A DNA stretch of 64,000 nucleotides, taken from a virus (taxonomy: Duplodnaviria; Heunggongvirae; Uroviricota; Caudoviricetes). The DNA lies in IMG/VR virus record IMGVR_UViG_3300029850_000274, positions 76,794-140,793 of that record. One strand, written 5' to 3'. Positions 4,593 through 54,727 of this stretch are shown piece by piece (the stretch's first letter is position 1; every line of letters starts with the position of its first letter). The notes beneath the pieces are model-generated. The model was not told the origin of the DNA and made no database searches. It saw only the letters and a program-made list of their open reading frames with translations. The translations under genes were made by a program, and so were the position numbers.

Positions 4593-4769
4593 ATGATAGT
4601 AAGAAATGAATATCCTGACGGTAGAACGGAAATTTTCTGTAACACGCCTGATGAGTATAACGACTTATGCTGTGAGTACGATCTTGAAGGTTGCGGTAAC
4701 AGTGGAAAATATGTTGGATCTAGTTGGTCACACGATGATAAGAACAATGTAGATGTTTATTATAGATAG
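4593..4769 (+). CDS. hypothetical protein (58 aa)
   Basis: ORF with RBS AGGTGG and spacer AAATT to the ATG. This is the recurring AGGTGGAAATTATG cassette. Confidence 0.45.
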   Translation: MIVRNEYPDGRTEIFCNTPDEYNDLCCEYDLEGCGNSGKYVGSSWSHDDKNNVDVYYR

Positions 4770-4785
4770 AAAGGAATAGAGAATC

Positions 4786-5457: not shown

Positions 5458-5473
5458 AAAGTAGGTGGAAAGA

Positions 5474-5722
5474 ATGAGTCGCAGAACGACTATGGAAGCA
5501 TTAGCGTGTCACATTGAACGAAAGTACAACACACTGTACTACACGGAAAATCCTCCGAACGCTGGAATTGATGATAGCTTACATGGTTACAAATACTTCT
5601 TATTATTCAAGAACACGTTCGGAATTTTTCGGAAGTATAGAACACAAGAAGAAGCAATTAACAGCATGACGGAAATTTTAAAAGAAGATCCGTCAGAATT
5701 ATTTAGTTACATAGCCAATTAA
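5474..5722 (+). CDS. hypothetical protein
   Basis: ORF. ATG sits after GTAGGTGGAAAGA, a variant of the repeated cassette. Confidence 0.45.
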   Translation: MSRRTTMEALACHIERKYNTLYYTENPPNAGIDDSLHGYKYFLLFKNTFGIFRKYRTQEEAINSMTEILKEDPSELFSYIAN

Positions 5723-5892
5723 AGGCTTTTACTACTCATGATGATATGAGTATACACCCTAACGGAAAGACTCGACTATTGAAGCTAATAGTTACTTTAA
5801 ATGAACGGAATGACTGTACTACTGGTTGATGGTAGTGACGTATTGGAACGGAAAAACGGTGGCGTATGGTAGATAAAAGAGTGCTTTTATCA

Positions 5893-5917
5893 GGCGGTTC
5901 AATTCCGCCCCTCGCCA
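5893..5917 (+). other. tRNA 3'-half-like element (T-arm plus 3' acceptor strand) without a matching 5' half
   Basis: GGCGG-TTCAATT-CCGCC forms a canonical T-stem and T-loop (TTCRANY). It is followed by CCTCGCC-A. No complementary GGCGAGG, D-arm or anticodon arm lies upstream within plausible distance. Confidence 0.3.
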
Positions 5918-6000
5918 CTTTTCACGATGGAAATTATCGTGTATAATATAAGAGAACTGTTAATATTTTAAAGTCCTGAATAGGCAGAAAGAAGGAAATT

Positions 6001-6480
6001 GTGTACGAGTTTAAAGAATTGATCTTGCCTGAACATTTTAGACACGCCTCATACGGAGGATTTTGTGTAAAACCTGGAATGTTTTATGGTGTAGAGAAAG
6101 AAACTGGAAAATTAGTTGCTACAACGGGCTGGAATGTAAATGGATTAACAAACATTTATATCCAACACGAGCCAAAGTCACAATGGAACAACGACTTATG
6201 GGAAGATCTTTACGATGATTATGGAAAACCTTTAATCACGATTGAAGAGAATGACTTGAAACGGATTAGTGATAAGGTTAAAGATTTTCAGAAGTCGGCA
6301 ATGGATTTTGAAACGTGGGCAGACGAAAACGGATATGATGAAGAATATTGTGAAGATCTTACTAGAGAAGAACTAGATCAGATAGAAGAATCTTATGAAT
6401 ATTATTACTTTATGGAATATCCTGAGTTTGTAATTCAGCTTTTAAAAGAACGTTGGGATTTAGAAAATTATGAAGAATAG
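6001..6480 (+). CDS. hypothetical acidic protein (159 aa), GTG start
   Basis: ORF. AGAAGGAAATT precedes the GTG. Confidence 0.45.
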   Translation: MYEFKELILPEHFRHASYGGFCVKPGMFYGVEKETGKLVATTGWNVNGLTNIYIQHEPKSQWNNDLWEDLYDDYGKPLITIEENDLKRISDKVKDFQKSAMDFETWADENGYDEEYCEDLTREELDQIEESYEYYYFMEYPEFVIQLLKERWDLENYEE

Positions 6481-6493
6481 GAAGGTGGAAATT

Positions 6494-6823
6494 ATGAAAT
6501 CATATAAAGAATACGATAGAGAATTTATCGGAGATAGTGATATTGCAGCTTTAATTTTTGTAGGCACAACAAAAGATGGATTGAAGGCAAACATCTTAAA
6601 TTTTGGCTCTGATGGAAGATATAATGCTTATGTTGTGGATGAGAACGCAAAGATCGGAGATCACTATACCTTAGAGATGGAGTTTGAAACGTCATCAGGT
6701 TTTAAGGCATGGCTTAAAATTTATGATGATGAAGGATTGACAGCAGATTATAGTGCAGACAAAATTAGAGTATATCGTGCTGGAGATTTTGGTTGTATTA
6801 TTCAGCTTATCGGAAAGAAATAA
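6494..6823 (+). CDS. hypothetical protein
   Basis: ORF with GGAAGGTGGAAATTATG cassette. Confidence 0.5.
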   Translation: MKSYKEYDREFIGDSDIAALIFVGTTKDGLKANILNFGSDGRYNAYVVDENAKIGDHYTLEMEFETSSGFKAWLKIYDDEGLTADYSADKIRVYRAGDFGCIIQLIGKK

Positions 6824-6913
6824 TAACGGAAAATTTAATACAAGAACAAAGTAATCTAGGAAGATGCAGAAATGTATCTTCCTTTTTTAATGGAAAGATA
6901 TGAGGTGGAAATT

Positions 6914-7351
6914 ATGAACAAATATAGAGATTATTATAGTGCAATTGTAGAAACAGAAAACGGATTAGATATTGATGTTTTGGAATTAGTTGATTGTGAG
7001 TTAGAACGACAGAAATATGGAGAACAACCAATCGTCGGAATGATTGCAAGTGATATTATCAATGAATTCAAAGAACATCAATTTACATGGCGTGACATTG
7101 TAGAGGTTCATGGAAAATATTATGCAGAGGAGTTCCCGATTAGCGGTATCATGGATGGTTCTGACGCATATCAGATTGATGATTTTTTAGATGCTGTAGC
7201 TGAAAAATACAATGTTGATCTTAGAAAAGAACAAATTAAAACTTATGTGATGGATAATATTGACTTCAATCCTGAGGAAGTAGAATTTGAGGCAGAGGAT
7301 TGTGGTTGCTATATTGATGGAAAACCTGAATGGTTTGATATAGAAGAATAG
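6914..7351 (+). CDS. hypothetical acidic protein
   Basis: ORF with GAGGTGGAAATTATG cassette. Confidence 0.5.
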   Translation: MNKYRDYYSAIVETENGLDIDVLELVDCELERQKYGEQPIVGMIASDIINEFKEHQFTWRDIVEVHGKYYAEEFPISGIMDGSDAYQIDDFLDAVAEKYNVDLRKEQIKTYVMDNIDFNPEEVEFEAEDCGCYIDGKPEWFDIEE

Positions 7352-17565: not shown

Positions 17566-18516
17566 ATGGCAGCAACACAGTTTGAAGTTATTGAAGCAGT
17601 AAATAATAACAACGCAGAAGAATCTGAAACAAAGATTAAAAGACGCAAGGACGGAAATCCTAAATGGACTCGATCTAACAAGCAGAAAGGCGTATCATCT
17701 TTAGTGTATCCGATCAAGGACAGAAAACAATTTGCAGCCTTTAATGCATATTTTAGAGACCAGATTGATAAATCGTACACAGAGTACAAACGATATGTAG
17801 CTGCCAGAAACAATCTTTTGGTTACAGTTGGAAACAATACAGCGTATCGTATTTCTGACATTGTTAGACTCAAATGGGGCGATTTATTAGACGATAAGAC
17901 TCGTAAACAGGAAAAGAAAACAAAGAAATTTAGAACTGTATACTTTAACGACTTAGTAACCGAAGCAGTGGATATTTTCTTTGAAGCTGTCGCAGGAACT
18001 AAATATGATGTCAAGATTGATGGTGAAGTGCCAATGGATGATTATGTTTTCGGAACATGTAAATCTGGATCAGGACACATGACAGAAGCAAATGCTTTAG
18101 ACTTTGTTAAAAAAGGTGCTAAAGCAGTTGGAATCGAGGATAACATTGGTACACATACACTACGAAAGAACTTTGTGTATTGGACACTTGTTGATCATAA
18201 AGATGATCAGAACGTATTGTATACACTTATGAGATTATTGAATCATAGCAGTCCTGCAATGACGTTTTTATATGCTACAATTACAGAAGAGGAAACTCAT
18301 GTATTGTTTGATGATATTGCTCAGACATATAAGGATATTATCAGCGGAGCATTTAACGGATTAAAGGAAAATGTTATTAATGTGAGTTATGATAGAGTTA
18401 TGGAGATTATCAAGTGTGCTTATGAGACTGGCAAGGATGATGCAGATCAAAATGATAGGGTACATGAGGATAATATGCAGGCACTAAAAGAGTTGTTGGA
18501 AGGAGTTATTTTATGA
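17566..18516 (+). CDS. tyrosine recombinase (phage integrase family catalytic domain)
   Basis: Catalytic residues are arranged R (ISDIVRLKWGD) ... HxxR (THTLRKNF) ... H (LNHSSPAM) ... Y (TFLYA). Confidence 0.6.
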   Translation: MAATQFEVIEAVNNNNAEESETKIKRRKDGNPKWTRSNKQKGVSSLVYPIKDRKQFAAFNAYFRDQIDKSYTEYKRYVAARNNLLVTVGNNTAYRISDIVRLKWGDLLDDKTRKQEKKTKKFRTVYFNDLVTEAVDIFFEAVAGTKYDVKIDGEVPMDDYVFGTCKSGSGHMTEANALDFVKKGAKAVGIEDNIGTHTLRKNFVYWTLVDHKDDQNVLYTLMRLLNHSSPAMTFLYATITEEETHVLFDDIAQTYKDIISGAFNGLKENVINVSYDRVMEIIKCAYETGKDDADQNDRVHEDNMQALKELLEGVIL

Positions 18517-19259
18517 TTTATGTAACAGGAGATACACATGGAGACTGGATGACTCGATTAAACAGTCGTTCTTTCCCTGAAGGAGTAGAGTTAACTAAAG
18601 ATGATTACGTGATCATTTGCGGAGATTTTGGATTGTGGCATGACACAAAAGAAGAACGACATAATCTGGAATGGTTGGATAACAAACCATTTACTACTTT
18701 GTTTGTATGTGGGAACCATGAAAATTATGATCGGCTGTACGAATATCCTGTAGAAGAATGGAATGGCGGAAAGATTCATAAGATTCGTGATTCTATTTTT
18801 CATCTCATGCGAGGGCAGATATTTGATATCCAGGGAAAGAGATTCTTCACATTTGGCGGAGCAAGTTCCCATGATGTTCAGGATGGAATTTTAGAACAAG
18901 ACGATCCAAGAATTAACGAATGGTACAGAGATTACGACAAAATGTTTAGGATCAATCATACGTCATGGTGGAAAGAAGAGCTTCCTTCAGAGGAGGAAAT
19001 GACAGAAGGTATGATGAATCTGAAGCAGAATGGATTGCAAGTGGATTATATAATTACACATAGTCCATACGCATCTGTATTATGTCAAATTGATCAAGGA
19101 TCAGGAGTGTATAAAACAGATATATTGACGGATTATTTGCAAGAGATTAAAGAATCTGTTGAATATAAAAAGTGGTTCTTTGGACATATGCATGTGAACC
19201 AGAACTTTCCAGGAGATAATGCGATTGCAATTTACGAACAAATTATTAGGATTTTATAG
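18513..19259 (+). CDS. metallophosphoesterase (calcineurin-like Ser/Thr phosphatase or diadenosine tetraphosphatase fold)
   Basis: Motifs GDTHGD, GDFGLW and GNHENYD match GDxHG / GDxxDRG-like / GNHE. Confidence 0.65.
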   Translation: MIYVTGDTHGDWMTRLNSRSFPEGVELTKDDYVIICGDFGLWHDTKEERHNLEWLDNKPFTTLFVCGNHENYDRLYEYPVEEWNGGKIHKIRDSIFHLMRGQIFDIQGKRFFTFGGASSHDVQDGILEQDDPRINEWYRDYDKMFRINHTSWWKEELPSEEEMTEGMMNLKQNGLQVDYIITHSPYASVLCQIDQGSGVYKTDILTDYLQEIKESVEYKKWFFGHMHVNQNFPGDNAIAIYEQIIRIL

Positions 19260-27662: not shown

Positions 27663-28499
27663 ATGATTAGTATTAATGGAGTCCCAGTTGTTCCAGAATC
27701 TTTTCCAGATGGAACGCAAAAAATTGATTTTTCGTTAGGTGTGATATCTCAAGAAATCATAGAAAACAAGACAGTGTATATCACATGGTTATATGAGTCA
27801 GATAAAGAGTTGTTTTCCTTGTTGTGTATTTCTAAAAATATTAAAGAACATTTTCCGTGGTTACAACAAGCATTAGTGATGCCGTATATACCAAATGCAA
27901 GATTTGACAGAGTAAAAGAGCCAAGCGAATGCTTTACATTAAAATATTTTGCAGAAATTATTAATAGTCTTGGATTTATAAGAGTTATTGTAACTGATCC
28001 ACATTCCGATGTATCTACTGCATTGATTGATCATGTAGAAGTAATCCGTGGAGCATCATATATTACACAAACTTGTAGCAAAGTCGTTAAAGCAGAACCA
28101 TCAAGAAATCTTGTAATTTATTTCCCAGATAGCGGATCACTAAAAAGATATTCTGAATTTGTATCAGATGATTATCCGATTGTCTATGGAATTAAAAATC
28201 GTGATTGGAAGACAGGAGAAATTCTTGGTATTGAGATTCATGGAGATACAGATAAATTAGACGAAAATACGGCAATCCTTATGATTGATGATATTTGTAG
28301 TAAGGGTGGCACATTCTATTATGGATCAAAAGAATTAAACAAATACGGTTGTAAAGATATGTATTTATATGTTAGTCACTGTGAAAATACAATTCTTGAT
28401 GGAGAATTATTAAAGAAAGATAGTTTGTTTAAAAAAGTGTATACGACACGTAGTATTTTTACAAAAGAACATGAGAAAGTTGAGGTGTTAGATTTATGA
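27663..28499 (+). CDS. ribose-phosphate pyrophosphokinase (Prs)-like type-I PRTase; candidate ADPR-pyrophosphate synthetase (Adps-like)
   Basis: PRPP-binding loop LMIDDICSKGGTF (DD..D.GGT). Two-PRT-domain length (278 aa). Four-base overlap with the NAMPT-like gene. Confidence 0.6.
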   Translation: MISINGVPVVPESFPDGTQKIDFSLGVISQEIIENKTVYITWLYESDKELFSLLCISKNIKEHFPWLQQALVMPYIPNARFDRVKEPSECFTLKYFAEIINSLGFIRVIVTDPHSDVSTALIDHVEVIRGASYITQTCSKVVKAEPSRNLVIYFPDSGSLKRYSEFVSDDYPIVYGIKNRDWKTGEILGIEIHGDTDKLDENTAILMIDDICSKGGTFYYGSKELNKYGCKDMYLYVSHCENTILDGELLKKDSLFKKVYTTRSIFTKEHEKVEVLDL

Positions 28500-29965
28500 A
28501 ACAAACAAATCCAATGTTATTAATTGATTTTTATAAAGCAGTTCATGCTGAAATGTTACCAAAAGGTATTACAAAATCTGTTTCTTATTTTACTCCACGT
28601 ATGAGCAGAGTAAAACGATGGAATGAAGTAGCCATGTTTGGATTACAAGGATTCATTAAAGAGTATTTGGTCGATTATTTTAATGAGTATTTTTTCTTTG
28701 AATATAGAAACAAAGCAATTGGTACTTATAAGACAGTAATGGATGCAACTCTTGGAGAAGGTACATATGGATTACAGAAAATCGAAGATTTATATGATCT
28801 TGGCTATCTTCCAATTGAGATTAAGGCTCTTCCTGAAGGAACTTTAGTACCAATGCATGTGCCGATGTTTAGTATTGAGAATACACATAAAGATTTTGCA
28901 TGGTTGCCACAGGCATTAGAAAGCTTAATTTCCGCAGAAATGTGGCATCCGATGATCGCTGCAACTGTCGGGCATACATATAGACAGATCGTTAATAAGT
29001 TTTATGAAATGACTTGCGATGACAATGCCGTAAAAGCTAGAGCATTAGGAGCTTTTGATTTTCGTGGAGAAGAGTGTTTACAGTCTGCGGTTAAAGCAGG
29101 GGCAGGATGGTGTTTATCATTCTTAAATACAGCTACGGTTCCAACAATTCCATATTTAGAGAGAAATTATAATTGTGATTGTACGAAAGAACCAGTTGCT
29201 TTTGGTAGCCCGTCTACTGAGCATTCGGTTGCGTGTAGTAATTATGCGATTGACGGAGATGAAGAGACTCTGATTAAAAGATTACTTACAGAGATTTATC
29301 CAAACACAAGCTTCTCCGCAGTATTGGATTCATATGATTATTGGAACGTTGTAGAGAATATTCTTCCAAAACTCAAGAATGAGATCATGAATCACAATGG
29401 ATGTTTTCTTGTAAGAGGAGATTCAGGAGATTGTGTAGATGTAGTAACCAGAACGGTATTCAAGTTATGGGAAGAATTTGGCGGAACTACGAATAGTAAA
29501 GGATACAAAGTATTAGATCCTCATATAAAAGCAATTTACGGAGATTCAATTACAGTGCAGAGATGTGAGCAGATTTATGACATCTTAGAGAAAAATGGAT
29601 TCGCAGCAAGCAATGTTGCACTTGGCGTTGGATCATTCTCATTCCAGTGCATCGAAGAAGATGGAATTTTAAAACCATTTACAAGAGATACATTTAGCAG
29701 TTGTATTAAAGCAACGTATTGTGAGATTGATGGTAAACCATATCCAATTTTTAAGAATCCAAAAGATGGCGGATTTAAGAAATCTCAGAGAGGTTTATGT
29801 CATGTCTATAAAGGATCAGACGGTAAATTGACATTTAAAGATGGATATACTTCAGAAAATCTTCCAATGAATAATCTGCTTGAGACAGTATTTAGAGATG
29901 GCAAATTGGTAAAGGAACAGTCATTACAGGAAATTAGGAGAGTTTTAAACGAAGGAGAATTTTAA
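28496..29965 (+). CDS. nicotinamide phosphoribosyltransferase (NAMPT/NadV)-like; candidate Namat-like NAD+ reconstitution enzyme
   Basis: N-terminus NPMLLIDFYKAVHAEMLPKGITKSVSYFTPR parallels NAMPT NPILL.DSYK.tHy.qyP....v.SYfe.R. VRGDSGD motif. 489 aa, which is NAMPT-sized rather than PncB-sized. Confidence 0.65.
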   Translation: MKQTNPMLLIDFYKAVHAEMLPKGITKSVSYFTPRMSRVKRWNEVAMFGLQGFIKEYLVDYFNEYFFFEYRNKAIGTYKTVMDATLGEGTYGLQKIEDLYDLGYLPIEIKALPEGTLVPMHVPMFSIENTHKDFAWLPQALESLISAEMWHPMIAATVGHTYRQIVNKFYEMTCDDNAVKARALGAFDFRGEECLQSAVKAGAGWCLSFLNTATVPTIPYLERNYNCDCTKEPVAFGSPSTEHSVACSNYAIDGDEETLIKRLLTEIYPNTSFSAVLDSYDYWNVVENILPKLKNEIMNHNGCFLVRGDSGDCVDVVTRTVFKLWEEFGGTTNSKGYKVLDPHIKAIYGDSITVQRCEQIYDILEKNGFAASNVALGVGSFSFQCIEEDGILKPFTRDTFSSCIKATYCEIDGKPYPIFKNPKDGGFKKSQRGLCHVYKGSDGKLTFKDGYTSENLPMNNLLETVFRDGKLVKEQSLQEIRRVLNEGEF

Positions 29966-30375
29966 TGGATTTTTACTTAGATAAAGACCATTGCTATCAG
30001 CGACTTGAAGATGAATTTAAGAAATATGGAAAATTAATTTTCTGTGTAGATTTTGATGATACATTATATGATTTTCACAAAGTTGGTAGAACTTATGACG
30101 ATGTGATGAATTTGCTTCGAGAATGGGAAGATTATTCTGAAGTGATTATTCTGACAGGTAATGGATCAGACAAATATGATATGATCGCAAATTATTTACA
30201 GAATCATAAGATTAAATACAAAGGTATCAACTGTGACAGTTCAATTCCCGTAGGCGGTCGCAAGGCATATGCAAATGTATATATTGATGACAGAGGTGGC
30301 TTGCCTTTAGTCTATAAACACTTAAAAATACTTATTTCAAGAATTAAGAGAGGAGATATAAAACATGAGTTTTAA
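29965..30375 (+). CDS. small HAD-superfamily phosphatase-like protein (136 aa)
   Basis: HAD motif I VDFDDTLYD (DxDxT). Overlaps both neighbours, consistent with translational coupling inside the NAD island. Confidence 0.45.
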   Translation: MDFYLDKDHCYQRLEDEFKKYGKLIFCVDFDDTLYDFHKVGRTYDDVMNLLREWEDYSEVIILTGNGSDKYDMIANYLQNHKIKYKGINCDSSIPVGGRKAYANVYIDDRGGLPLVYKHLKILISRIKRGDIKHEF

Positions 30376-31135
30376 TGCAGTAGAAACCAAAGACAGATTA
30401 GTGCAGTGGATCAAAGATTGGTTTGAAATTAATGGTAAAGGATGCAATTCCATTGTAGGAATTTCAGGAGGTAAAGATTCATCAGTTGTCGCTGCCTTAT
30501 GTGTCGAAGCACTAGGTAAAGATCAAGTTATTGGTGTTATGATGCCACAGGGAGATCAGTCAGACATTGAATATTCAAGAATGTTATGTGATCACTTAAG
30601 AATTGATAACTATACGGTTAATATCTACGAGCCATGTTTAAGTATCAAGCATGAAGTATCAAGCGTATTAAATGGTAAATGGAGTAAACAGAGTGCCACA
30701 AATTTACCTGCTCGTATCCGAATGGCTACATTGTATGCTTTTGCACAGAGTATGAATGGAAGAGTAGCAAATACATGTAATTTATCTGAAGATTGGGTCG
30801 GATATGCAACAAGATATGGAGATTCAGCCGGAGATTTTAGTCCATTAAGTGATCTAACTGTGACAGAAGTTAAAGCAATTGGTAGAGTTCTGGGACTTCC
30901 AACAGAGTTAATCGAAAAAACTCCTACTGATGGGTTATGTGGCAAGACAGATGAAGATAATCTTGGATTTACATACGAAGTGTTGGATGAATATATCAGA
31001 ACAGGTGAATGCAAGGATAAAGCAGTGAGACAGATCATTGATGAAATGCATGAGAAGAATGTATTTAAACTTGCTCCAATGCCTAAATTTATATCTGGCA
31101 TGTGGATCGAGGCAGGAATGGAGTTGGATGATTAA
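30365..31135 (+). CDS. nadE: NH3-dependent NAD+ synthetase
   Basis: PP-loop ATP pyrophosphatase motif IVGISGGKDSSVVAAL (SGGxDS). 256 aa. Confidence 0.7.
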   Translation: MSFNAVETKDRLVQWIKDWFEINGKGCNSIVGISGGKDSSVVAALCVEALGKDQVIGVMMPQGDQSDIEYSRMLCDHLRIDNYTVNIYEPCLSIKHEVSSVLNGKWSKQSATNLPARIRMATLYAFAQSMNGRVANTCNLSEDWVGYATRYGDSAGDFSPLSDLTVTEVKAIGRVLGLPTELIEKTPTDGLCGKTDEDNLGFTYEVLDEYIRTGECKDKAVRQIIDEMHEKNVFKLAPMPKFISGMWIEAGMELDD

Positions 31136-31137
31136 AC

Positions 31138-31470
31138 ATGAAAGTTAAAGCAAAATGGGCAGGTCGTGGTTTTGCACTCTGTATTGGGGAATGGAAGCTT
31201 TATGTTGATGGCAAAGATGCTACAGATAAGATTCCAGAAGACTTACGCACAGAATCTATGAATACATATAAAAAATATGAACGATGGTATTTTAAGGGTT
31301 GGGACGTAGAATGGGAATCATATTATGACGGACTAAAGCAAGATGAATGGATTGAGTCTAATAAATATTGGTTAGATGAAATCACAACAGATATTGAAAT
31401 TCAACGTCAAATTTTCAAAGCAATTAATGAACAAGATTTTCGCCATAACTCATGTGGTGGGTGTATTTAG
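31138..31470 (+). CDS. hypothetical protein (110 aa) ending in ...NSCGGCI
   Basis: ORF starts 3 nt after the nadE stop. Confidence 0.45.
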   Translation: MKVKAKWAGRGFALCIGEWKLYVDGKDATDKIPEDLRTESMNTYKKYERWYFKGWDVEWESYYDGLKQDEWIESNKYWLDEITTDIEIQRQIFKAINEQDFRHNSCGGCI

Positions 31471-31564
31471 TAACTAGGTTATAACATCTATATATGATGT
31501 TGTGATAAATAAATACAATCTATCTGTTAAACTCAAAAACAAAGAAAGTAGAGGAATTTTATAG

Positions 31565-32440
31565 ATGTTGATGTTTTTATTTAGAGGATTATTATTGATT
31601 GGTACTGCCGTACTGATTGGAGTTGGATGCTATGATTTTCAGGAAGAAAATTTTAAGCCATTCAAAAAAATGTTATATGCTTTAATCCCATTCGTATTAT
31701 GGGTACTTACATTATGTATTGTATATGTACCGTCTAATAACGTAGGAATTCGTTGGTCAGCATTCAGTGGAACTAGCAGCAAGACATTAAATGAAGGAAT
31801 TACATTCAAGAGTCCAATTGATAAGGTATTTCTTATTCCAACTACTGTAGAAGAGAGATCAATTAAGAATGTAAATGTTCAGACCAAAGATGCACAGTTT
31901 GTAAAAGCTGAGGTAAATGTCAAGTTTCGTGTTAACCAGAAAGATGCATTTAAGGTATACAAGAGATACACAACACTTGACAACTTAAAGCAGAATATTA
32001 TTAGCAACTATGCCCAGAAGAGTATTGAAACAGTAGTTACTCAGTACAATGTGATTGATACTCTTGGGGCTAAGAAAAATGAGATTTATTCTTTAGCTAC
32101 AAAAGATTTACAGAACATGCTTAAAGATGAAGGTGTCGAGCTTGTGCAGCTGACTATTAAAGATATGAACGCAGGAGACGAAATTGAGAAAGCGATCGCT
32201 GATGAAGCAGTCGCTAAGAAACGTGTAGAAACAGCAGAGCAGAATCGTCTTAAAGCAAAGAAAGATGCTGAGACTAAGGTAGTTAATGCTAAAGCAGAGG
32301 CTGATGCAAATAAAATCTTAGAGAAACAGCTAACAAACAAAATCTTAATTCAGCAGTGGATTGAAAAATGGAACGGAGAGGTTCCTAAAGTATCTGGTGA
32401 TAGCAAGTCTATGATCAATATTCAGGATTTGATGAAATAA
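31565..32440 (+). CDS. SPFH/band-7 (prohibitin/flotillin-like) membrane protein
   Basis: N-terminal TM helix, then SPFH-like core (GIRWSAFSG...KDAQFVKAEVNVKFRV) and an Ala/Lys-rich coiled-coil tail. Confidence 0.55.
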   Translation: MLMFLFRGLLLIGTAVLIGVGCYDFQEENFKPFKKMLYALIPFVLWVLTLCIVYVPSNNVGIRWSAFSGTSSKTLNEGITFKSPIDKVFLIPTTVEERSIKNVNVQTKDAQFVKAEVNVKFRVNQKDAFKVYKRYTTLDNLKQNIISNYAQKSIETVVTQYNVIDTLGAKKNEIYSLATKDLQNMLKDEGVELVQLTIKDMNAGDEIEKAIADEAVAKKRVETAEQNRLKAKKDAETKVVNAKAEADANKILEKQLTNKILIQQWIEKWNGEVPKVSGDSKSMINIQDLMK

Positions 32441-38072: not shown

Positions 38073-38097
38073 AGAAATTGAGAAAGGAGAAATGCAA

Positions 38098-38436
38098 ATG
38101 GGGAAAACATTAGTCATTGTATTAACTGATAAAGGCATTAAATTAGATGATAAATCACCGCTTATTTCTATTAATGTCAATGATATGAAACCGTTGGAAG
38201 TAGAAGAGTGTAAACATATTCTGACAATGGTCGATGACGAATATCCAACTGAAAAAAGTGTAACAAGGGCGATTAACATTTTAATAAATTATTTTTATGC
38301 TACCGATGAAGTTTGTAGAACTATTGACGTTACTGACCTTAATCGCCAATTAGCTCCACCGACAGAAATGACGGTTGCAGAAATTGAAAAGGAACTTGGT
38401 TATAAAGTTAAGATTGTAAAGGAGAAAGAAGAATGA
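38098..38436 (+). CDS. hypothetical protein
   Basis: ORF. GAAAGGAGAA lies 8 nt before ATG 38098. Confidence 0.45.
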   Translation: MGKTLVIVLTDKGIKLDDKSPLISINVNDMKPLEVEECKHILTMVDDEYPTEKSVTRAINILINYFYATDEVCRTIDVTDLNRQLAPPTEMTVAEIEKELGYKVKIVKEKEE

Positions 38437-39386
38437 AATGTTTTTATCACGTAGATCAAGATGGGATTGTGTCTGGTTTCTATGTTAGAAAAGCTTGCGA
38501 ACAGCGAGGCTTGGCATTTAAACCAGAAGACTTTCGAAAAATTAATTACGGCATGAAATTCCCGTTTCATGACATTGAGCAGGATGAATTTGTGTTTATT
38601 GTAGACTACAGTATTGAGCCAGAAGAGATGTGGCAGTTGCTCAGTATTACAAAGAATGTATTTTGGATCGACCATCATCAGTCTACGATTGAAGCGTATA
38701 AAGATTTCAAGTGTGATGTAAAAGGAATCAGAATTACTGGAGCGGGTATTTCAGGAGCGAATTTGACATGGTTATATTTTAAATATATGTGCGATGAAAA
38801 TTGGGAGCAAATTGAGAGGACGGATGAGAAAAATGTAAAAAGATTACTCAATATATATAAATATAAAGCAGATTATCCAAAACTGGCAGAATATACAGCC
38901 ATGTGGGATACATTTTATTTTGGTGAAACGTCAAAACAATTCGTAAAAGCATTTCACTATGCATTTGAATCGTATGATTTTGATGCGTTAAGTCCATTGC
39001 TAAACACGTTAAATAAAGATCAAGGAATTTATGAAGCAACAAAAAATATTGGTGATATGGTAGCAGATGGCTTATCAATTATTGAGTATTTAGCAGCAAA
39101 TGCAGAACAATATCTTAGAGCATATGGTTTTGAAACCATATTTGAGGGACATAAAGTCTATGCAATCAACCGAGCATTAATCAATTCTGATTTCTTTGAA
39201 TCTATTGATGCTTCTAAATATGATATGTTCATTGGTTTTTCGTTCAATGGAAGTATGTGGGAATATCAGTTGCGATCCGCAGAACAGGATAAAGTAAATG
39301 TGTATGAGCTTGCTGTGAAATATGGTGGCGGTGGTCATCCAAATGCAGCTGGGTTCAGGAGTAAGAAATATGTATTAGGAGTGTGA
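38433..39386 (+). CDS. DHH-DHHA1 phosphoesterase, NrnA-like (nanoRNase / pAp phosphatase family)
   Basis: DHH motifs: I YHVDQDGIVSG (H.D.DG), III WIDHHQS (DHH), IV GGGGHPNAAG (DHHA1 GGGH). 317 aa is NrnA-sized. Confidence 0.65.
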   Translation: MKCFYHVDQDGIVSGFYVRKACEQRGLAFKPEDFRKINYGMKFPFHDIEQDEFVFIVDYSIEPEEMWQLLSITKNVFWIDHHQSTIEAYKDFKCDVKGIRITGAGISGANLTWLYFKYMCDENWEQIERTDEKNVKRLLNIYKYKADYPKLAEYTAMWDTFYFGETSKQFVKAFHYAFESYDFDALSPLLNTLNKDQGIYEATKNIGDMVADGLSIIEYLAANAEQYLRAYGFETIFEGHKVYAINRALINSDFFESIDASKYDMFIGFSFNGSMWEYQLRSAEQDKVNVYELAVKYGGGGHPNAAGFRSKKYVLGV

Positions 39387-39393
39387 GATAACG

Positions 39394-40146
39394 GTGAATG
39401 GCATTAACGTAGAACTATATAAAAATCGAGAGTTTGACATTGCTACAGGTGCTTGTATCGGAGATGAATCAACAAAAATTACTTCTATTATAAGCAATAA
39501 AGAGATAGATCGTATGTTGTTCGACTTTGATTATAAGGAGTACGTTGTAAGCACTCAATTTTCTTCTTGCAAAAATAAAGATTATGTAAAAATTGAAGAG
39601 TTGAGAGAAGTGTCTCCAATGATATTATCTTGCAAAGAAATAAAATTAAAGGATGGCACAAAGTTTCATATCGATAATACACAAATAGATATTTCTAATG
39701 ATTGTGAAGTATATAAACTGTATTCGAACAGCACATATTTAGATAAAACATATTACAATCAAACAAAAGAAATGGTTTCTGAGTGGGTGCGTGTAGATTT
39801 GCAAAGAATTCACAAGATAATGACTAATATTGCAAATGAAATTTATGATCAATCAGTCCTTGAGTATAAAAACAGTAGTAGGCTCTATCGTTTTTTTAAT
39901 ACTCCAGATCTCCCTGATTTACAATTAGTTTATTCTACATTAGATTTATACAGAATGACATCATTAGGAACATTAACATATGATATTCGTAATCGTATAG
40001 AAAAAAATGTTTCAAATTTGAAATATGTAAAAAATTGGTGGGAGCCAATGAGACAACGCAAGTATTATTTAGCATTAGACTATAGAGAAAAAATCAACAA
40101 CTTTATTAAAGAACAGGAGGCTAAGAAATGTGAAGAAACTAAATGA
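39394..40146 (+). CDS. hypothetical protein (250 aa), GTG start
   Basis: ORF with TAGGAGTG 9 nt before the GTG. Confidence 0.45.
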   Translation: MNGINVELYKNREFDIATGACIGDESTKITSIISNKEIDRMLFDFDYKEYVVSTQFSSCKNKDYVKIEELREVSPMILSCKEIKLKDGTKFHIDNTQIDISNDCEVYKLYSNSTYLDKTYYNQTKEMVSEWVRVDLQRIHKIMTNIANEIYDQSVLEYKNSSRLYRFFNTPDLPDLQLVYSTLDLYRMTSLGTLTYDIRNRIEKNVSNLKYVKNWWEPMRQRKYYLALDYREKINNFIKEQEAKKCEETK

Positions 40147-40663
40147 TGAACAGCGAAAGCTGATTGAAGATAATTATTCTTTAATTTGGCATTTGCACGA
40201 AGAGTATTTTACAAAGTTTACAGATTTTGATACATATATGGATCTTGGTCGTATGGCGATTTGCAAAGCGGCATTAAAATGGGACGAGTCTAAAGGAGCT
40301 TTTGGTACATATCTCTTCTGGGTATTACGTTCAGAAGTGAATCAATATTATACAAAATGGCACAGACCAACAGAAAAAATGAATAGGAATGCTGAATCGT
40401 TAGATACGCCATTGGCAGGATATGAACCAGAAGATGATATTACAATCGGAACAACACTGATGAGTGGGGATAACGTAGAAGATGAGGTACTTACAAAGGT
40501 ACATTTTCAAAATGAGTTTGATAAATTGGCACCGAGAAATAAAAAGATTATTGTTTTAAAACAGAAAGGTTTAACACAAAGACAAATTGCAAATCAACTT
40601 GGAATCACTCATCAGTGGGTTAGTCAAAATATTGTACAGTTTAAGAAAGCATTATGTGGTTAA
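40130..40663 (+). CDS. sigma-70 family RNA polymerase sigma factor (small, group 4/5-like), copy 1
   Basis: Region-2-like MDLGRMAICKAALKWDESKGAFGTYLFWVLRSEV and region-4 HTH LTQRQIANQLGITHQWVSQNI. Paralogous to 46422..46964. Confidence 0.6.
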   Translation: MKKLNDEQRKLIEDNYSLIWHLHEEYFTKFTDFDTYMDLGRMAICKAALKWDESKGAFGTYLFWVLRSEVNQYYTKWHRPTEKMNRNAESLDTPLAGYEPEDDITIGTTLMSGDNVEDEVLTKVHFQNEFDKLAPRNKKIIVLKQKGLTQRQIANQLGITHQWVSQNIVQFKKALCG

Positions 40664-40676: not shown

Positions 40677-41510
40677 ATGACAATTGAAGAAGTAAAGGAT
40701 TACATAAATTCGTCTACAGAGTATGACTTTTTGCGAGATTATCCGCACAAAATCGCTTTTCTCACGTTAGGTGGAAGTTATGCCTACGGAACAAACACAG
40801 AGGATTCTGACATTGATTTACGTGGTGTTTTTCTTAGTGATAAAAGAGAGATTTTGTTGAATAATAATCCAAATAATCTTGAAAAGACAGACGATCATAA
40901 AGATGTTGATACTGTGTTACATTCGCATATTAAGATGATCAATATGCTTGCAAAGGGTAATCCTACGTTTTTAGAGCTGTTATATTTTGCACCAGACCGC
41001 TATTTATATATATCTGATATTGGTATGGAACTGATCAAAAATAGAGATATGTTTTTATCTAAGAGAGTTTATCATGCATATAAAGGATATATATGTGATT
41101 GCCTGACTCGAACGAGTTTTAAGTATTATAAAAATAAAGATTCAGAGAAAGAAAAGCAAAAGGCGGAACGATACGCTAATAAATCAATGATGCACGCAGT
41201 TCGATTATTGTTACAGGGTATTGAATTATTACATAACGGAACAATGTTTGGATCTATGGATGACATAGGAAAAGATCTTGTAAAGATCAAAGAAGGGTAC
41301 AATAGTACGCATAAAACATATAGATTTGGCAAACACAATGAGCATACAGAATATTTCCCAAATCAGTCATACGATGTTTTTATTGAAGGATTACTTTATC
41401 AATTTGATTATGATTATATGAATACTGATTTGCCAGACGAACCAGACTGGGATCGTATCAATAACTTCTTGATGACAACAAATGAACGAATTGTGAGAGG
41501 AATGGTGTAA
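40677..41510 (+). CDS. Pol-beta-superfamily nucleotidyltransferase (KNTase / RlaP-like minimal NTase fold plus helical C-domain)
   Basis: LTLGGSYAYGTNTEDSDIDLRGVF matches the GS...DxD nucleotidyltransferase signature. ATG 40677 follows AAGAGAGGTGAGACC. Confidence 0.55.
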   Translation: MTIEEVKDYINSSTEYDFLRDYPHKIAFLTLGGSYAYGTNTEDSDIDLRGVFLSDKREILLNNNPNNLEKTDDHKDVDTVLHSHIKMINMLAKGNPTFLELLYFAPDRYLYISDIGMELIKNRDMFLSKRVYHAYKGYICDCLTRTSFKYYKNKDSEKEKQKAERYANKSMMHAVRLLLQGIELLHNGTMFGSMDDIGKDLVKIKEGYNSTHKTYRFGKHNEHTEYFPNQSYDVFIEGLLYQFDYDYMNTDLPDEPDWDRINNFLMTTNERIVRGMV

Positions 41511-42308: not shown

Positions 42309-42646
42309 TGGATGTACATATTGGAGATTTTTGGCAGAGTAAATGTAATCCAAAAGTAATTCAACATGTAGTTAATTTTTCATTTAGCATGGGTGGATTT
42401 CCAAGTAGTAAAGATATGCTACTGATCTGTGAAGAATTTCATTATACAAAGATAGGTGAGAATCCTGCCTCTGTCGAAGAAGATTCCAGATTCTTCTCAC
42501 ATATTACAGTGGATAATTTTAAAAAGATGAATCAATGTATTCTAAGTGCTGAGAGGATTATGAAAGATACTCAGGCATTTAAAACAGATAAAGATATTTT
42601 GGATTATTTAACAAAGAAAGTGGAGGAGAAATTAAATGCAAAATAA
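42308..42646 (+). CDS. hypothetical protein (112 aa)
   Basis: ORF overlapping the upstream stop. Confidence 0.45.
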   Translation: MDVHIGDFWQSKCNPKVIQHVVNFSFSMGGFPSSKDMLLICEEFHYTKIGENPASVEEDSRFFSHITVDNFKKMNQCILSAERIMKDTQAFKTDKDILDYLTKKVEEKLNAK

Positions 42647-43109
42647 TGTATTTCAGATTTATCTTGCAGGCGGTATGCAGGATTTATCATTTGAAGAGCA
42701 GAATACTTGGAGAGAAAGAATTTGCAATCAAATTATTGCTATGCGTAGAATACTTAATGTTAATATGAAAGAAGTCAACATTATTAACCCCGTTGATTAT
42801 TACAATTTTCAAACAGAGTTACATGATACAGAAAAAGAAGTAATGAGATTTGATACAAATTTTGTTAGACATAGTGATCTTGTTGTGGTAAATGCGAATG
42901 ATCCGAAGAGTATTGGTACATCTATGGAGATTGCAATTGCATATGAACGTCATATTCCTGTACTGATTTTGAATACAGAAAAGAAAAGATTGCATGCTTG
43001 GTGGGTGCAAATGTCTGACAAGATATTTGACGATGAGAAAAAATTATGTACATATATATATGACTTTTATCTCAGGATGAATCATAGTAGTATTCGAGCA
43101 TGGGTGTAA
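42636..43109 (+). CDS. nucleoside 2-deoxyribosyltransferase-like (NDT/Rcl/DNPH1 fold) protein
   Basis: IYLAGGM (NDT YLAGPFF-type N-terminal motif). Catalytic-Glu block SIGTSMEIAIAYERHIPVLIL matches d.GT.fElG.A...gkPv. Confidence 0.55.
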   Translation: MQNNVFQIYLAGGMQDLSFEEQNTWRERICNQIIAMRRILNVNMKEVNIINPVDYYNFQTELHDTEKEVMRFDTNFVRHSDLVVVNANDPKSIGTSMEIAIAYERHIPVLILNTEKKRLHAWWVQMSDKIFDDEKKLCTYIYDFYLRMNHSSIRAWV

Positions 43110-43324: not shown

Positions 43325-44356
43325 GTGAAAGCTTTAAATAATATTCTGTCTGGACATTCAGCTGATGAATTGGATAAATTGTTTGTGTCCGATCCACATT
43401 ATGCAGAGTTTCTAAAATATGTAAATTGGCGAAGAAATTGTGAAATGGGAAGAACTACATGTGGCTTCATTGATTATAATTTGGGAACTTTGTTTGAATA
43501 TGCAAGTCAATATTCAGTATGTGAGCAGTTCTTCGCTATAGGGTTTACGCACAAACAAATTGCAGAAGATTTCAGATATTCAATTAATGAAGTACCAAAA
43601 TGGTTAAGAAATTATTGTATTGGTGTGAAGATGAACCGCTTATTAAATAACAAGTTTGTTGATTTTTACAAAAAATATCCAGATTATGTTCAAACAATTC
43701 TTCAAACACAATATATGACAGTGACTCAATCCGACTTAATGTTCTTTTTTGCTAATCGTAGCACAGATTATTATATGGAAATATTAACGTCTTTAAATAA
43801 GGATTATGGATATAATCTCGCAGATGTATTTGTTTATATGGATAAGATAATGACGTTTGAAGCAATTGTTGCTATAAATTGGTTGCTCAGAGAATTGCGT
43901 GATTATGCCCGTATGATGGACGCAATCAGTCATAAATTTGATAGATATCCAAGACATTTCAAAACAACAATGGATATTGTCACAAGAAATTACAAAAGAT
44001 TACAAAAAGAATTTTCGGAAGAAGTCTTTAAGAGCCGTATTAATAAAGAATACGAATTTACATATAAAGGACTGAGATTCTTTTATCCAGACTCCACTCA
44101 AGACATTAAAGACGAAGCGGTACAGCAGAATAATTGTGTGGCAAGTTACATAGATCGAGTCATTGATGGCGAATGCCATATTATGTTCTTGAGAAGAGTA
44201 AAAGAACCAGAAAAATCGTTAGTGACGATTGAAATACAAAATGGACGAATCGTACAAGCACTGCAAAGATTCAATGATCCTCTAACCGCTGATCAGCAAG
44301 AAGCGGTCGATGCATGGAATGAACATTTTAGCAAGAAAGGTAAGGTGGCAGTATGA
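43325..44356 (+). CDS. hypothetical protein (343 aa), GTG start; C-terminal region loosely PcfJ-like
   Basis: ORF. In-frame upstream extension has no ATG. C-terminal NNCVASYIDRVIDGECHIMFLR...NGRIVQALQRFNDP. Confidence 0.4.
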   Translation: MKALNNILSGHSADELDKLFVSDPHYAEFLKYVNWRRNCEMGRTTCGFIDYNLGTLFEYASQYSVCEQFFAIGFTHKQIAEDFRYSINEVPKWLRNYCIGVKMNRLLNNKFVDFYKKYPDYVQTILQTQYMTVTQSDLMFFFANRSTDYYMEILTSLNKDYGYNLADVFVYMDKIMTFEAIVAINWLLRELRDYARMMDAISHKFDRYPRHFKTTMDIVTRNYKRLQKEFSEEVFKSRINKEYEFTYKGLRFFYPDSTQDIKDEAVQQNNCVASYIDRVIDGECHIMFLRRVKEPEKSLVTIEIQNGRIVQALQRFNDPLTADQQEAVDAWNEHFSKKGKVAV

Positions 44357-46421: not shown

Positions 46422-46964
46422 ATGTCGTTGAAATTAAATGACGAACAGAGAAAATTAGTAGAACAAAATCATAATTTGATTTACTCTGCTATGCGGAAAT
46501 TTGGTATCCGCAGACAAGATTTTGATGACTATTATGGATTCGCTGCTATTGGGTTGTGTAAGGCAGCAATTGATTATGATAAAACACGATCTAAATCATT
46601 TTCGACATATGCATATTTATGTATACAAAATGAGATAATGGTATATAACAAATATAGATTTCGGCAGAGAAGAAAAGGTGATATGAATACTATTTCATAT
46701 AATCATATGTTAGATGATTGGGATGAAGACAAAAATGAAAATTCATTTCTTTTAAAGGATGAAGAAAATTTTGAAAAAAATATTATTTTCAAGTTGAATT
46801 TTCAAGATAAATGTTACACACTAAATAATAAGGACAGAATGATTGTTGATTTAAAATCAAAAGGTTATACATATCAAGAAATCGCAAAAATGTTTGGTAC
46901 ATCATTTCAAGCGATACAACAAAAGATTAAAAGAATGCGATCAACAACATTTTCCAGATTATAA
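46422..46964 (+). CDS. sigma-70 family RNA polymerase sigma factor, copy 2
   Basis: MSLKLNDEQRKLVEQNHNLIY... parallels the copy-1 N-terminus MKKLNDEQRKLIEDNYSLIW. Region-4 HTH YTYQEIAKMFGTSFQAIQQKIKRMR. AAGGAG RBS. Confidence 0.6.
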   Translation: MSLKLNDEQRKLVEQNHNLIYSAMRKFGIRRQDFDDYYGFAAIGLCKAAIDYDKTRSKSFSTYAYLCIQNEIMVYNKYRFRQRRKGDMNTISYNHMLDDWDEDKNENSFLLKDEENFEKNIIFKLNFQDKCYTLNNKDRMIVDLKSKGYTYQEIAKMFGTSFQAIQQKIKRMRSTTFSRL

Positions 46965-52978: not shown

Positions 52979-54727
52979 GTGCCAGAAATTTTAAGAAATA
53001 GAGGGATTGATGATTATGAAACGTATTTGAACCTCGATGATAGCGTAATTCAAGATTATGCCGATTTAGAGGGTATCAAAAACGCAGTAAATACAACGAT
53101 TTTTGCACTTGAAAATGGACATAAAATCGGTATTTTAATTGACGAGGACGTAGACGGATTTTGCTCGGCTTCGATGGCATATATGTACTTAAATCGCATT
53201 AATAATGAACTTTATGATGGTAAGAGTAACATTTGTTACTTATTACATAAAAAAGCAAAAGCTCATGGATTAAGTGAAGATATTACTATACCTGAAGACG
53301 TAAAACTTCTAATAATTCCAGATGCAGGCACCAATGATGTAGCACAATGTACAGAACTTGTCGACCGTGGCGTACAGATTGTAATTCTTGATCACCATGA
53401 AAAAGAAGAATCTGAAGAAATAATGCCAGAGGAAGTTGTAATTGTAAATAATCAGTGTAGTCCACGATATAGAAATAAAGACTTATGTGGGGCTGGGATT
53501 GTTTATAGATTTTTACAGGCAATGGATGATGAATTATGGATTAATTATGCAGATGATTATTTAGATTTATGTGCATTAGCGAATATCGGTGATGTCATGG
53601 ATATGAGATCATTTGAGACACGTCGATTAGTGGATAAAGGGCTTCAGAATATTCAGAATAAATGCTTTAAAGCACTAATTCAGGCACAAGATTATTCAAT
53701 GCATAGTATTGTAAATATCCATAATATTCAATGGTATATTGTTCCAATTATCAATGGTATGGTACGATTTGGTTCTTTGAAAGATAAAGAATTAGTTTTT
53801 AGAGCATTTATTGAAGACTATGAGGTATTTGACTATAAGAAAAGAGCAACAAAAAACAACCCTGCGGAAGTAATCAAAGAGAATATTTACGATCGTGCTG
53901 CTCGATTATGCAAAAATGCTAAAGGCAAACAGGATCGTCAAAAGAAAAAGATGGTTCCGATTATTATGAAAGAGGCAGAAAAAGATAAAGATAGTAAGAT
54001 TACTATTCTTGATGTTACAGAAACATTAGATAGCAGTTTGACAGGATTGGTTGCTATTAAGATTGCTGAAGATATGAACAGACCATGTTTGTTATTACGA
54101 AAACATATTAATCCAGAAACAGGATTAGTAGAAATGAGTGGTAGCGCAAGGAATGTAGACCATAGCCCGATTGATAGTTTGAAAGATGTGATATCCGAAA
54201 CAAATTCATTTTTATGGGCAAAAGGTCACGCCAATGCATTTGGATGTTCGACAGATAATATCTCTGGAGCAATCACAGAATTAAACGACAAGCTGAAAGA
54301 TATTAAATATGATGCAACTTATAGAGTTGATTTCATTGTAGATGCTTGTAGATTAGATTTTGAACTACTACAGGAAATATCTAAATTGGATGATATTCGT
54401 GGGCAGGGCATTGATGATCCGATGATTGCTGTCGAGAATATCACATTAAATAAGGAAGAAATTAATGTTGTTGGTAAGAAAATGGATACAATACAATTCA
54501 AGATTAATGATATTCCATGCGTGATGTTTAGATGTAATGAAAAAAATAAGATTTATGATTGGATTATGAACGATTTTTCTGACGAAGGCACAGTTACATT
54601 TGAATTAGTAGGAACTGCACAGACTAATATCTTTAACGGAATTAGACAATATCAAATTGCAGTTGATGATCTTAATGTTCTGAGCATTACAGCAGATGAA
54701 GAATTAGACGAAGATATTTGGGATTGA
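52979..54727 (+). CDS. RecJ-like DHH-DHHA1 single-strand DNA exonuclease, GTG start
   Basis: DHH motifs ILIDEDVDGFCS, IIPDAG, IVILDHHEKEE (DHH), RecJ-like DLCGAGIVYRFL, DHHA1 KGHANAFG. Confidence 0.55.
   Translation: MPEILRNRGIDDYETYLNLDDSVIQDYADLEGIKNAVNTTIFALENGHKIGILIDEDVDGFCSASMAYMYLNRINNELYDGKSNICYLLHKKAKAHGLSEDITIPEDVKLLIIPDAGTNDVAQCTELVDRGVQIVILDHHEKEESEEIMPEEVVIVNNQCSPRYRNKDLCGAGIVYRFLQAMDDELWINYADDYLDLCALANIGDVMDMRSFETRRLVDKGLQNIQNKCFKALIQAQDYSMHSIVNIHNIQWYIVPIINGMVRFGSLKDKELVFRAFIEDYEVFDYKKRATKNNPAEVIKENIYDRAARLCKNAKGKQDRQKKKMVPIIMKEAEKDKDSKITILDVTETLDSSLTGLVAIKIAEDMNRPCLLLRKHINPETGLVEMSGSARNVDHSPIDSLKDVISETNSFLWAKGHANAFGCSTDNISGAITELNDKLKDIKYDATYRVDFIVDACRLDFELLQEISKLDDIRGQGIDDPMIAVENITLNKEEINVVGKKMDTIQFKINDIPCVMFRCNEKNKIYDWIMNDFSDEGTVTFELVGTAQTNIFNGIRQYQIAVDDLNVLSITADEELDEDIWD

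Follow-up and report, generated by a model that had tools for sequence, protein, structure and literature searches.

Stand-alone DHH/DHHA1 proteins are exonucleases, and the turnover of tRNA ends in bacteria relies on RNase T and RNase PH together with the CCA-adding enzyme. Among the enzymes that restore RNA ends, RlaP has been shown experimentally to add one or two nucleoside monophosphates to the 3'-OH of damaged RNA, and it is needed for over-damaged tRNA to regain aminoacylation (PMC12776372). Thg1 rebuilds tRNA 5' ends and has been grouped with RlaP and the CCA-adding enzyme as a phage nucleotide-restoration toolkit, in a review that places phage DHH enzymes under counter-signalling and not under RNA repair (PMC7824862). 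RNase PH, a 3' exonuclease, has served in the in vitro repair of tRNAs whose 3' ends the toxin MenT3 had extended (PMC11541572). Here we analyse a stretch of 64,000 nucleotides (nt) of Caudoviricetes DNA (IMG/VR record IMGVR_UViG_3300029850_000274, positions 76,794 to 140,793; hereafter the window), which encodes a stand-alone DHH/DHHA1 phosphoesterase of 317 amino acids (aa) in the same co-directional block as an RlaP-family nucleotidyltransferase. We tentatively favour the reading that this protein belongs to a phage tRNA repair or maturation module, as a nuclease that trims or heals RNA/tRNA ends; we regard this as quite possible, if still short of probable. The family is already catalogued (PHROG 4771) and its fold is ordinary; the apparent novelty is that stand-alone DHH/DHHA1 genes are consistently embedded in phage tRNA/RNA-repair cassettes.

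Among characterised DHH/DHHA1 enzymes, NrnA combines 5'-3' nanoRNase activity with phosphatase activity on 3'-phosphoadenosine 5'-phosphate (pAp). NrnBs of clade A, with a C-terminal extension of more than 100 aa, are general 3'-5' exoribonucleases that need this extension for long RNAs, and the short NrnBs of clades B and C, as well as NrnA, prefer RNAs of 2-4 nt (PMC12709177). The tested NrnBs (Bacillus subtilis, B. licheniformis, B. thuringiensis and Helicobacter pylori) degrade RNA from the 3' end and leave cyclic di-AMP (c-di-AMP) uncleaved, and the B. subtilis enzyme lacks phosphatase activity on pAp (PMC12709177, PMC10570053).

A DHH/DHHA1 gene under purifying selection

The preliminary description of this DNA had reported a 317-aa open reading frame (ORF) with all DHH signature motifs. 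This is confirmed by the sequence itself, by conservation across 40 relatives, by a match to PHROG 4771, by an AlphaFold2 (AF2) model and by the ratio of nonsynonymous to synonymous substitution rates (dN/dS). The features of the gene are as follows.

38433..39386, + strand: DHH/DHHA1 phosphoesterase gene, 317 aa, ATG start
38420..38425, + strand: Shine-Dalgarno sequence AAGGAG, 8 nt 5' of the ATG, read from the sequence
38448..38465, + strand: DHH motif I, H6-V-D8-Q-D10-G11 (metal ligands), conserved in relatives
38670..38678, + strand: DHH motif III, D80-H81-H82, invariant in alignments A1, A4 and A5
39324..39338, + strand: DHHA1 substrate-binding motif, G298-G-G-G-H302, invariant in relatives

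The product is read directly from the sequence, and its ATG overlaps, in the letters ATGA (38433-38436), the stop of the 114-aa ORF that comes before it. Motifs II and IV are read as D58 and D159. Across the 40 relatives, which extend down to about 40% identity, H6, D10, G11, D58, D80, H81, H82, D159 and GGGGH are invariant and D8 is nearly so. Comparison with relatives of 81-89% identity gives dN/dS values of 0.11-0.19, which means that purifying selection acts on the gene.

The AF2 model (predicted local distance difference test, pLDDT, 92; predicted template modelling score, pTM, 0.84) has the two-domain DHH plus DHHA1 fold of the superfamily, with the DHH domain at about residues 1-107, a helical linker or insert at about residues 108-231 in which one helix spans 33 residues (199-231), and the DHHA1 domain at about residues 232-317. 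The chain stops 15 residues past GGGH and has no C-terminal extension of more than 100 aa. The match to PHROG 4771 'DHH phosphoesterase' has E=1.2e-35, and searches of public data gave 451 homologs (E<=1e-3), so that the identification stands well clear of chance. Based on its motifs and modelled fold, we propose that the protein is an active, divalent-metal-dependent DHH/DHHA1 phosphoesterase.

Linkage to RNA-end repair genes

We collected 264 DHH loci from viral, genome and metagenome collections and reduced them to 112 lineages at 70% DHH identity, with one locus each. Neighbours were searched with iteratively built hidden Markov models (HMMs), which replaced a BLAST-level clustering that was too strict to show the pattern, and eight common phage gene families served as controls. 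Core RNA-repair genes were defined as RlaP, the CCA-adding enzyme, Thg1, RNA ligase and Pnk kinase. With all lineages pooled the signal is modest, a core gene lying within 10 kb in 13/112. The association is clade-specific. Among the 25 lineages with at least 36% identity to the window protein and at least 12 kb of flank, 13 have a core gene within 10 kb, 11 have one within 3 kb and 5 have one adjacent to DHH; when two metallophosphatase families are added, these counts become 17, 15 and 7. In the same clade the eight control families, pooled, are adjacent in 0/25, and DnaB is within 3 kb in 0/25. In contrast, core repair genes were found in none of the 41 lineages below 36% identity. The distant and mostly cellular lineages have TatD, hydrolases of the metallo-beta-lactamase (MBL) fold, MetRS and holB as DHH neighbours; alphaproteobacterial metagenome-assembled genomes (L115-L122 in our locus numbering; 27-29% identity) share a conserved housekeeping cluster of holB, metG, tatD and an MBL-fold hydrolase.

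For the nearer lineages (21 representatives scanned), an unbiased Pfam census took in the 148 ORFs lying no more than 2.5 kb from the DHH gene. RlaP and Metallophos head the list with five genes each, followed by CCA-enzyme domains and DUF6275 (three each), Thg1, Band_7 and the AAA_33 kinase (two each) and a T4-type RNA ligase (one). Thymidylate synthase and dCMP deaminase occur once each. The census also holds two GGDEF genes and one EAL gene, probably from cellular loci such as L088, as well as a gene for Tad3, an inhibitor of type I Thoeris, within this distance of one of the DHH homologs.

Several tight arrangements of these genes occur, and they vary with the lineage. At 41% DHH identity, L004 has the order RlaP, a 313-aa protein (unk313), CCA-adding enzyme (PolyA_pol plus HD), DHH and Thg1, with gaps of 2-3 bp around DHH. 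The order RlaP-(unk313)-CCA-DHH recurs in L057, L058, L089 and L127, and gaps in this cassette type, L004 included, are 0-4 bp. The enzyme of L057 scores 310 bits against the NCBIfam equivalog for CCA tRNA nucleotidyltransferase, above its cutoff of 290. In L006, RlaP, an unassigned gene and the CCA enzyme lie a few kb off and Band_7 is adjacent, and L007 has Band_7, an ADP-ribosylglycohydrolase and a metallophosphatase near DHH. Other loci carry healing and sealing enzymes: L087 has RlaP-DHH and then a 763-aa Pnkp-like fusion of kinase, metallophosphatase and T4-type RNA ligase (4020-6311), L173 has the order Pnk-HD...RlaP..DHH with a fusion of polynucleotide kinase and HD at 6259-7221, and L051, L052, L154 and L090 have Thg1...Metallophos...DHH-DUF6275...Metallophos. 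Linkage of DHH with RNA-end repair enzymes is thus conserved, close and co-directional across diverged lineages.

DUF6275 (about 90 aa) lies within 3 kb of DHH in six lineages, adjacent in two of them, and may be a partner protein. Examples are:

L052, 10702-10965: DUF6275
L127, 11198-11473: DUF6275
L090, 9659-9982: DUF6275
L007, 4993-5259: DUF6275

The reverse search started from CCA-adding enzymes and considered the best 80 of more than 571 viral loci. A DHH-family ORF lies directly 3' of the CCA enzyme in 63 of these 80, and RlaP is present in 59. The orders were RlaP-CCA-DHH (24 loci), RlaP-unk313-CCA-DHH (20) and CCA-DHH (19), and neighbouring frames typically abut or overlap. Contigs of the lineage of the window phage were absent from these best 80 of more than 571 loci. 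Two DHH types that are only 22-24% identical fill the slot, the type of the window protein in 6 loci and a second type in 57. Since two distant DHH families occupy one slot, the pattern argues for a functional requirement and not for inherited synteny alone. GenBank annotators label the second type nrnB or oligoribonuclease NrnB in cultured phages, among them Clostridioides phage AR1086-1 and Bacillus phages AR9, PBS1, Goe21 and Nachito; in AR1086-1, nrnB directly follows rtcB, which encodes the RNA-repair ligase. The NrnB-type gene has further recurring partners that process nucleic acids: genes for a sigma factor and a triphosphate-tunnel metalloenzyme come before it in Nachito (L345), and in AR9 (L346) it is flanked by a superfamily 2 helicase and a DEDD 3'-5' exonuclease.

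The protein unk313 (about 313-318 aa; no Pfam or NCBIfam match) stands between RlaP and the CCA enzyme in 25/80 of the CCA loci (L264-L343) and is a candidate member of the tRNA-repair module. Examples are:

L089, 7678-8634: unk313
L004, 3701-4642: unk313

tRNA genes also occur beside DHH. Arrays of 2-12 tRNA genes lie just 5' of DHH in six lineages (L051, L052, L077, L154, L090 and L007), with Thg1 directly after the last tRNA. These six have no CCA enzyme, and CCA is encoded in 41/42 of their tRNAs. In L127, where the RlaP-CCA-DHH cassette follows the tRNAs, CCA is encoded in 0/3. A nuclease that trims 3' ends would be useful both with encoded and with added CCA, as far as this small sample goes.

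The DHH-x-sigma-RlaP block of the window phage

In the window the DHH gene has the following neighbours.

38092..38436, + strand: upstream ORF, 114 aa, no family match, confined to the lineage of the window phage
39394..40146, + strand: 250-aa protein, occupying the variable slot that separates DHH from sigma, no Pfam match
40130..40663, + strand: sigma-70-family factor, 177 aa, with regions 2 and 4 (Pfam)
40677..41510, + strand: RlaP-family (PF10127) Pol-beta nucleotidyltransferase, Pfam E=2.8e-23, above the gathering cut-off

RlaP lies 1.2 kb 3' of the DHH gene. The order DHH-x-sigma-RlaP is found in 30/33 loci of the lineage and is kept at 64% and 56% DHH identity despite different upstream flanks. 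The start of RlaP is likely the ATG at 40677 (MTIEEVKDY...), as called in L347, and the protein is 41% identical to RlaP of L004. The 250-aa protein evolves fast, with 44% identity in L347 compared with 82% for DHH and 78% for RlaP, and in 5/33 loci an unrelated ORF (about 175 aa) takes its slot. It has 12 homologs only, and its AF2 model failed (pLDDT 48). The 114-aa ORF is probably translationally coupled to the DHH gene.

The sigma factor has a paralog in the window (about 177-180 aa; 40130-40663 and 46422-46964). A sigma homolog stands beside the DHH gene in three separate lineages, namely that of the window phage, L001/L041 (directly downstream of DHH) and L078, and the pairing persists even without RlaP.

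A proposed role in trimming tRNA ends

The cassettes encode enzymes that add nucleotides, enzymes that heal ends (HD, metallophosphatase and Pnk) and enzymes that seal them (Rnl and RtcB), but no nuclease. Because this step is missing and stand-alone DHH/DHHA1 proteins are exonucleases, we assign the trimming step to DHH. The protein would act on RNA ends, most probably the 3' tails of tRNAs, and would take off terminal nucleotides that are damaged, truncated and frayed or aberrantly extended, or else a terminal phosphate that blocks the end. The trimmed end would be a clean 3'-OH from which the template-independent nucleotidyltransferases of the phage could rebuild. In the window phage the partner would be RlaP; in relatives it would be the CCA-adding enzyme, Thg1 (for 5' ends) and a Pnkp-type kinase/phosphatase/ligase or RtcB. 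Such a module could keep tRNAs functional during infection, countering host defences directed against the translation apparatus, and in relatives that encode tRNAs it could also mature the phage tRNA precursors. We infer the RNA substrate, the exonucleolytic trimming, the specificity for tRNA and the cooperation with RlaP from these associations, and a 3'-to-5' polarity is suggested by analogy with the characterised NrnB proteins.

A wider proposal, which we put forward with less confidence, as a possibility, is that phage cassettes for tRNA end repair and maturation have a trimming component that has gone unrecognised although it is integral to them, namely stand-alone DHH/DHHA1 nucleases. 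Two deeply diverged families, that of the window protein and an NrnB-like one, would have been recruited to one slot beside the CCA-adding enzyme, RlaP, Thg1, Pnkp or RtcB. With their partners they would strip and rebuild tRNA acceptor ends that have been cut, phosphorylated or extended by host defences. Candidate systems that might be countered in this way are acceptor-stem RNases, CapRel-type pyrophosphokinases and MenT/AbiE-type nucleotidyltransferases.

Several observations weigh against a role in tRNA-end trimming. HMM searches of the window found no CCA-adding enzyme, Thg1, Pnk kinase, DUF6275 or unk313, and the window has no RNA ligase and no tRNA gene. The DHH gene and RlaP are two genes apart in this phage. 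Within the clade of 25 lineages, 12 have no core repair gene within 10 kb, and the closest of the outside lineages (lin19 at 50% and lin12 at 46% identity) show nothing but a sigma factor close by. When gene ranks were permuted within loci, a weak test, the outcome was just marginal (combined p ~0.05), and we replaced this test by the clade stratification, the control families and the reverse search. Many of the loci are from related gut phages and are phylogenetically non-independent. Phage accessory regions gather unrelated counter-defence genes, so that co-location could reflect an 'island' and not a shared pathway; the NAD (nicotinamide adenine dinucleotide) salvage genes of the window and Tad3 in one relative are examples. 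Lastly, the C-terminal extension with which NrnB degrades long RNAs is absent from the protein, which may therefore act on very short RNAs only.

Relationship to characterised DHH enzymes

Both Pfam domains score under their gathering cut-offs in the 317-aa protein (DHH, PF01368, 20.6 vs 28.1 bits; DHHA1, PF02272, 22.1 vs 25.9 bits), which makes it a divergent member of the DHH/DHHA1 superfamily as judged by sequence; several relatives have precomputed matches to PF01368 and PF02272. The preliminary description had called the protein an NrnA-like DHH-DHHA1 phosphoesterase. The superfamily part of this assignment holds, but the likeness to NrnA found no support. The NCBIfam NrnA equivalog (NF053633) gives 16 bits against a cutoff of 350, with a match restricted to residues 263-307, and the profile of the family aligns to the solved NrnA, Rv2837c, TmPDE and DhhP only over about 33 residues around GGGH. 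The closest structural neighbours are not of the NrnA type and the inter-domain linker is long. The NF053633 score, the structural ranking and the linker thus do not support an NrnA-like identity.

The best NCBIfam match to the N-terminal domain, though weak, is archaeal RecJ. The best fold matches among viral models, which are also the best overall (template modelling, TM, scores 0.65-0.74; 16-20% identity), are jumbo-phage and giant-virus proteins named 'DHH family phosphohydrolases', from Klosneuvirus, Erwinia phage PhiEaH1, Pseudomonas phage PaBG and Ralstonia phage RP12. Two relatives carry the JGI label COG2404, 'NrnB/cAMP/cGMP phosphodiesterase'. The window protein is detected at just 45 bits (E=1.7e-13) by an HMM built from the phage DHH type annotated as NrnB, these labels being those of GenBank annotators; this type itself has no NrnB match in NCBIfam and no sequence match in the PDB. 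The window protein is a member of a mostly viral, uncharacterised branch (PHROG 4771; COG2404-like) that is nearer to the long-linker enzymes of the NrnB and RecJ types.

Alternative functions

The protein could instead be a general nanoRNase or oligoribonuclease that degrades RNA fragments of 2-5 nt, and perhaps pAp, for nucleotide recycling and relief of nanoRNA inhibition, with no specific link to tRNA repair. Stand-alone DHH/DHHA1 enzymes of similar size (NrnA and NrnB clades B and C) favour RNAs of 2-4 nt (PMC12709177), the protein has no C-terminal extension of the kind tied to long-RNA activity, nucleotide-metabolism genes lie nearby (a nucleoside 2-deoxyribosyltransferase at 42636-43109; NAD salvage at 28.5-31 kb) and GenBank annotators have named phage relatives 'oligoribonuclease'. 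However, the neighbour census is rich in RNA-end repair enzymes and not in nucleotide salvage, and neither a place between the CCA enzyme and Thg1, with gaps of 0-4 bp, nor presence in 63/80 CCA loci would be expected of such an enzyme. We consider a general nanoRNase unlikely, although it has to be taken seriously.

It is improbable, in our judgement, that the protein is a phosphodiesterase that destroys cyclic di- or oligonucleotide messengers, such as those of the cyclic-oligonucleotide-based anti-phage signalling system (CBASS), the cyclic oligoadenylates of type III CRISPR, or c-di-AMP and pApA. The same prediction has been made for jumbo-phage DHH enzymes in a review (Iyer et al. 2021; PMC7824862), a passage of which also cites a DHH-DHHA1 nuclease of Sulfolobus that is associated with the membrane and acts on cyclic tetra-adenylate (cA4). 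Other DHH/DHHA1 precedents are GdpP, the Pde2/NrnA-like CnpB and TmPDE. The accessory region holds genes of counter-defence type (NAD salvage), Tad3 lies within 2.5 kb in one relative, and two relatives have neighbours with GGDEF domains. The structural ranking, the biochemistry of NrnB and the gene neighbourhoods nevertheless weigh against it, and we found no specific relatedness to the characterised cyclic (oligo)nucleotide phosphodiesterases GdpP, CnpB, TmPDE, PggH and archaeal MAD. The earlier suggestion that the gene product degrades cyclic-nucleotide immune signals thus found no support in this analysis.

Very improbable is a second, minimal RecJ-like exonuclease acting on single-stranded DNA in recombination, DNA repair or degradation of host DNA, since a complete RecJ, OB domain included, is already encoded in the replication module, Pfam finds no RecJ_OB or other extra (DNA-binding) domain in the 317-aa protein, and its neighbours are RNA enzymes, with DnaB in none of the 25 clade lineages within 3 kb.

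Other genes of the window

The entire window is co-directional, with about 33% GC. The DHH gene sits in a long array of accessory or early-type genes, outside the replication module, and scans for promoters and terminators around it gave results at chance level. The other features of note are:

52979-54727: RecJ, 582 aa, Pfam DHH plus RecJ_OB, in the primase/PolIII-alpha/RecD2/LigA module
28496-29965: NAMPT-like phosphoribosyltransferase, among the upstream accessory genes
30365-31135: NAD synthase, among the upstream accessory genes
31565-32440: Band_7/SPFH protein, beside the NAD genes

That the 317-aa protein is distinct from the 582-aa RecJ of the replication module, as the preliminary description had stated, is upheld by the position and domains of the latter, and the family HMM (A1) of the 317-aa protein does not pick up this RecJ.

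The NAMPT-like, NAD synthase and Band_7 genes (28496-32440) resemble an NAD+ salvage or reconstitution set that plausibly counters NAD-depleting defences. L347 keeps the NAMPT-like gene, followed by a faint Macro-domain protein. Downstream, a gene for a helix-turn-helix protein comes after RlaP, and 3' of these two lie the nucleoside 2-deoxyribosyltransferase-like gene and a PcfJ-like gene (43325-44356), an order kept in L347, L348 and L349. At 18513-19259, 19 kb from the DHH gene and adjoining an integrase-family gene (17566-18516), there is a close homolog (E=1e-88) of 'Metallophos A', the calcineurin-like phosphoesterase that accompanies DHH in other lineages.

No near-identical DNA was found in GenBank phages, where tblastn matches are just 25-29% identical; IMG/VR contigs with 98% identity at the DHH gene exist. 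Near-identical relatives lie on IMG/VR contigs, which are about 158-167 kb long, and also on Logan/ENA contigs; the latter, at 314-316 kb, have about twice that length and may be concatemer assemblies or a larger genome. A homolog of the 250-aa neighbour occurs in Anaerostipes and other members of the DHH family in genomes of Lachnospiraceae and Clostridium, which points to a Firmicutes gut phage as the source.

Implications and comparison with known systems

Phage DHH phosphoesterases currently carry a generic annotation. If these enzymes are the nuclease arm of tRNA repair or maturation cassettes, phage RNA repair would gain trimming beyond healing, adding and sealing, and defences that act by modifying or extending the 3' ends of tRNAs would have a concrete candidate counter-measure. 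To our knowledge, no phage escape enzyme against such defences has been identified. The choice of assays would also be redirected for a family present in hundreds of gut phages, in jumbo phages and in giant viruses. An anti-signalling function should not be inferred from the fold class alone.

The family that matches directly is PHROG 4771 'DHH phosphoesterase', a name that is descriptive only. Like NrnB (COG2404; B. subtilis YngD and homologs), the window protein is a stand-alone DHH/DHHA1 enzyme whose motif I lies at the very N-terminus and whose two domains are joined by a long helical linker; unlike the NrnBs of clade A it lacks the C-terminal extension, and it could resemble the short clades B and C. 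It shares with NrnA and the NrnA-like phosphodiesterases (the catalytic domain of GdpP, CnpB/Rv2837c, TmPDE and PggH) a length of about 310-340 aa, the two-domain architecture, the catalytic motifs and an aligning GGGH. In contrast, archaeal RecJ/Cdc45 (GAN), RecJ2 and PF0399-type proteins are cellular enzymes of replication and repair, have 430-470 aa with extra domains and are 13-19% identical to it.

In the searchable literature, which did not cover Burroughs & Aravind 2016, we found no description of a DHH/DHHA1 component of RNA-repair systems. The known systems (T4 Pnkp/Rnl, bacterial Pnkp, RtcB, RlaP, the phage CCA enzyme and Thg1) are formed by the very enzymes that are the conserved neighbours of the DHH gene. 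Compared with them, the role proposed here would add trimming to healing, adding and sealing, by analogy with RNase T and RNase PH beside the CCA enzyme in bacteria and with the use of RNase PH on tRNA ends extended by MenT3.

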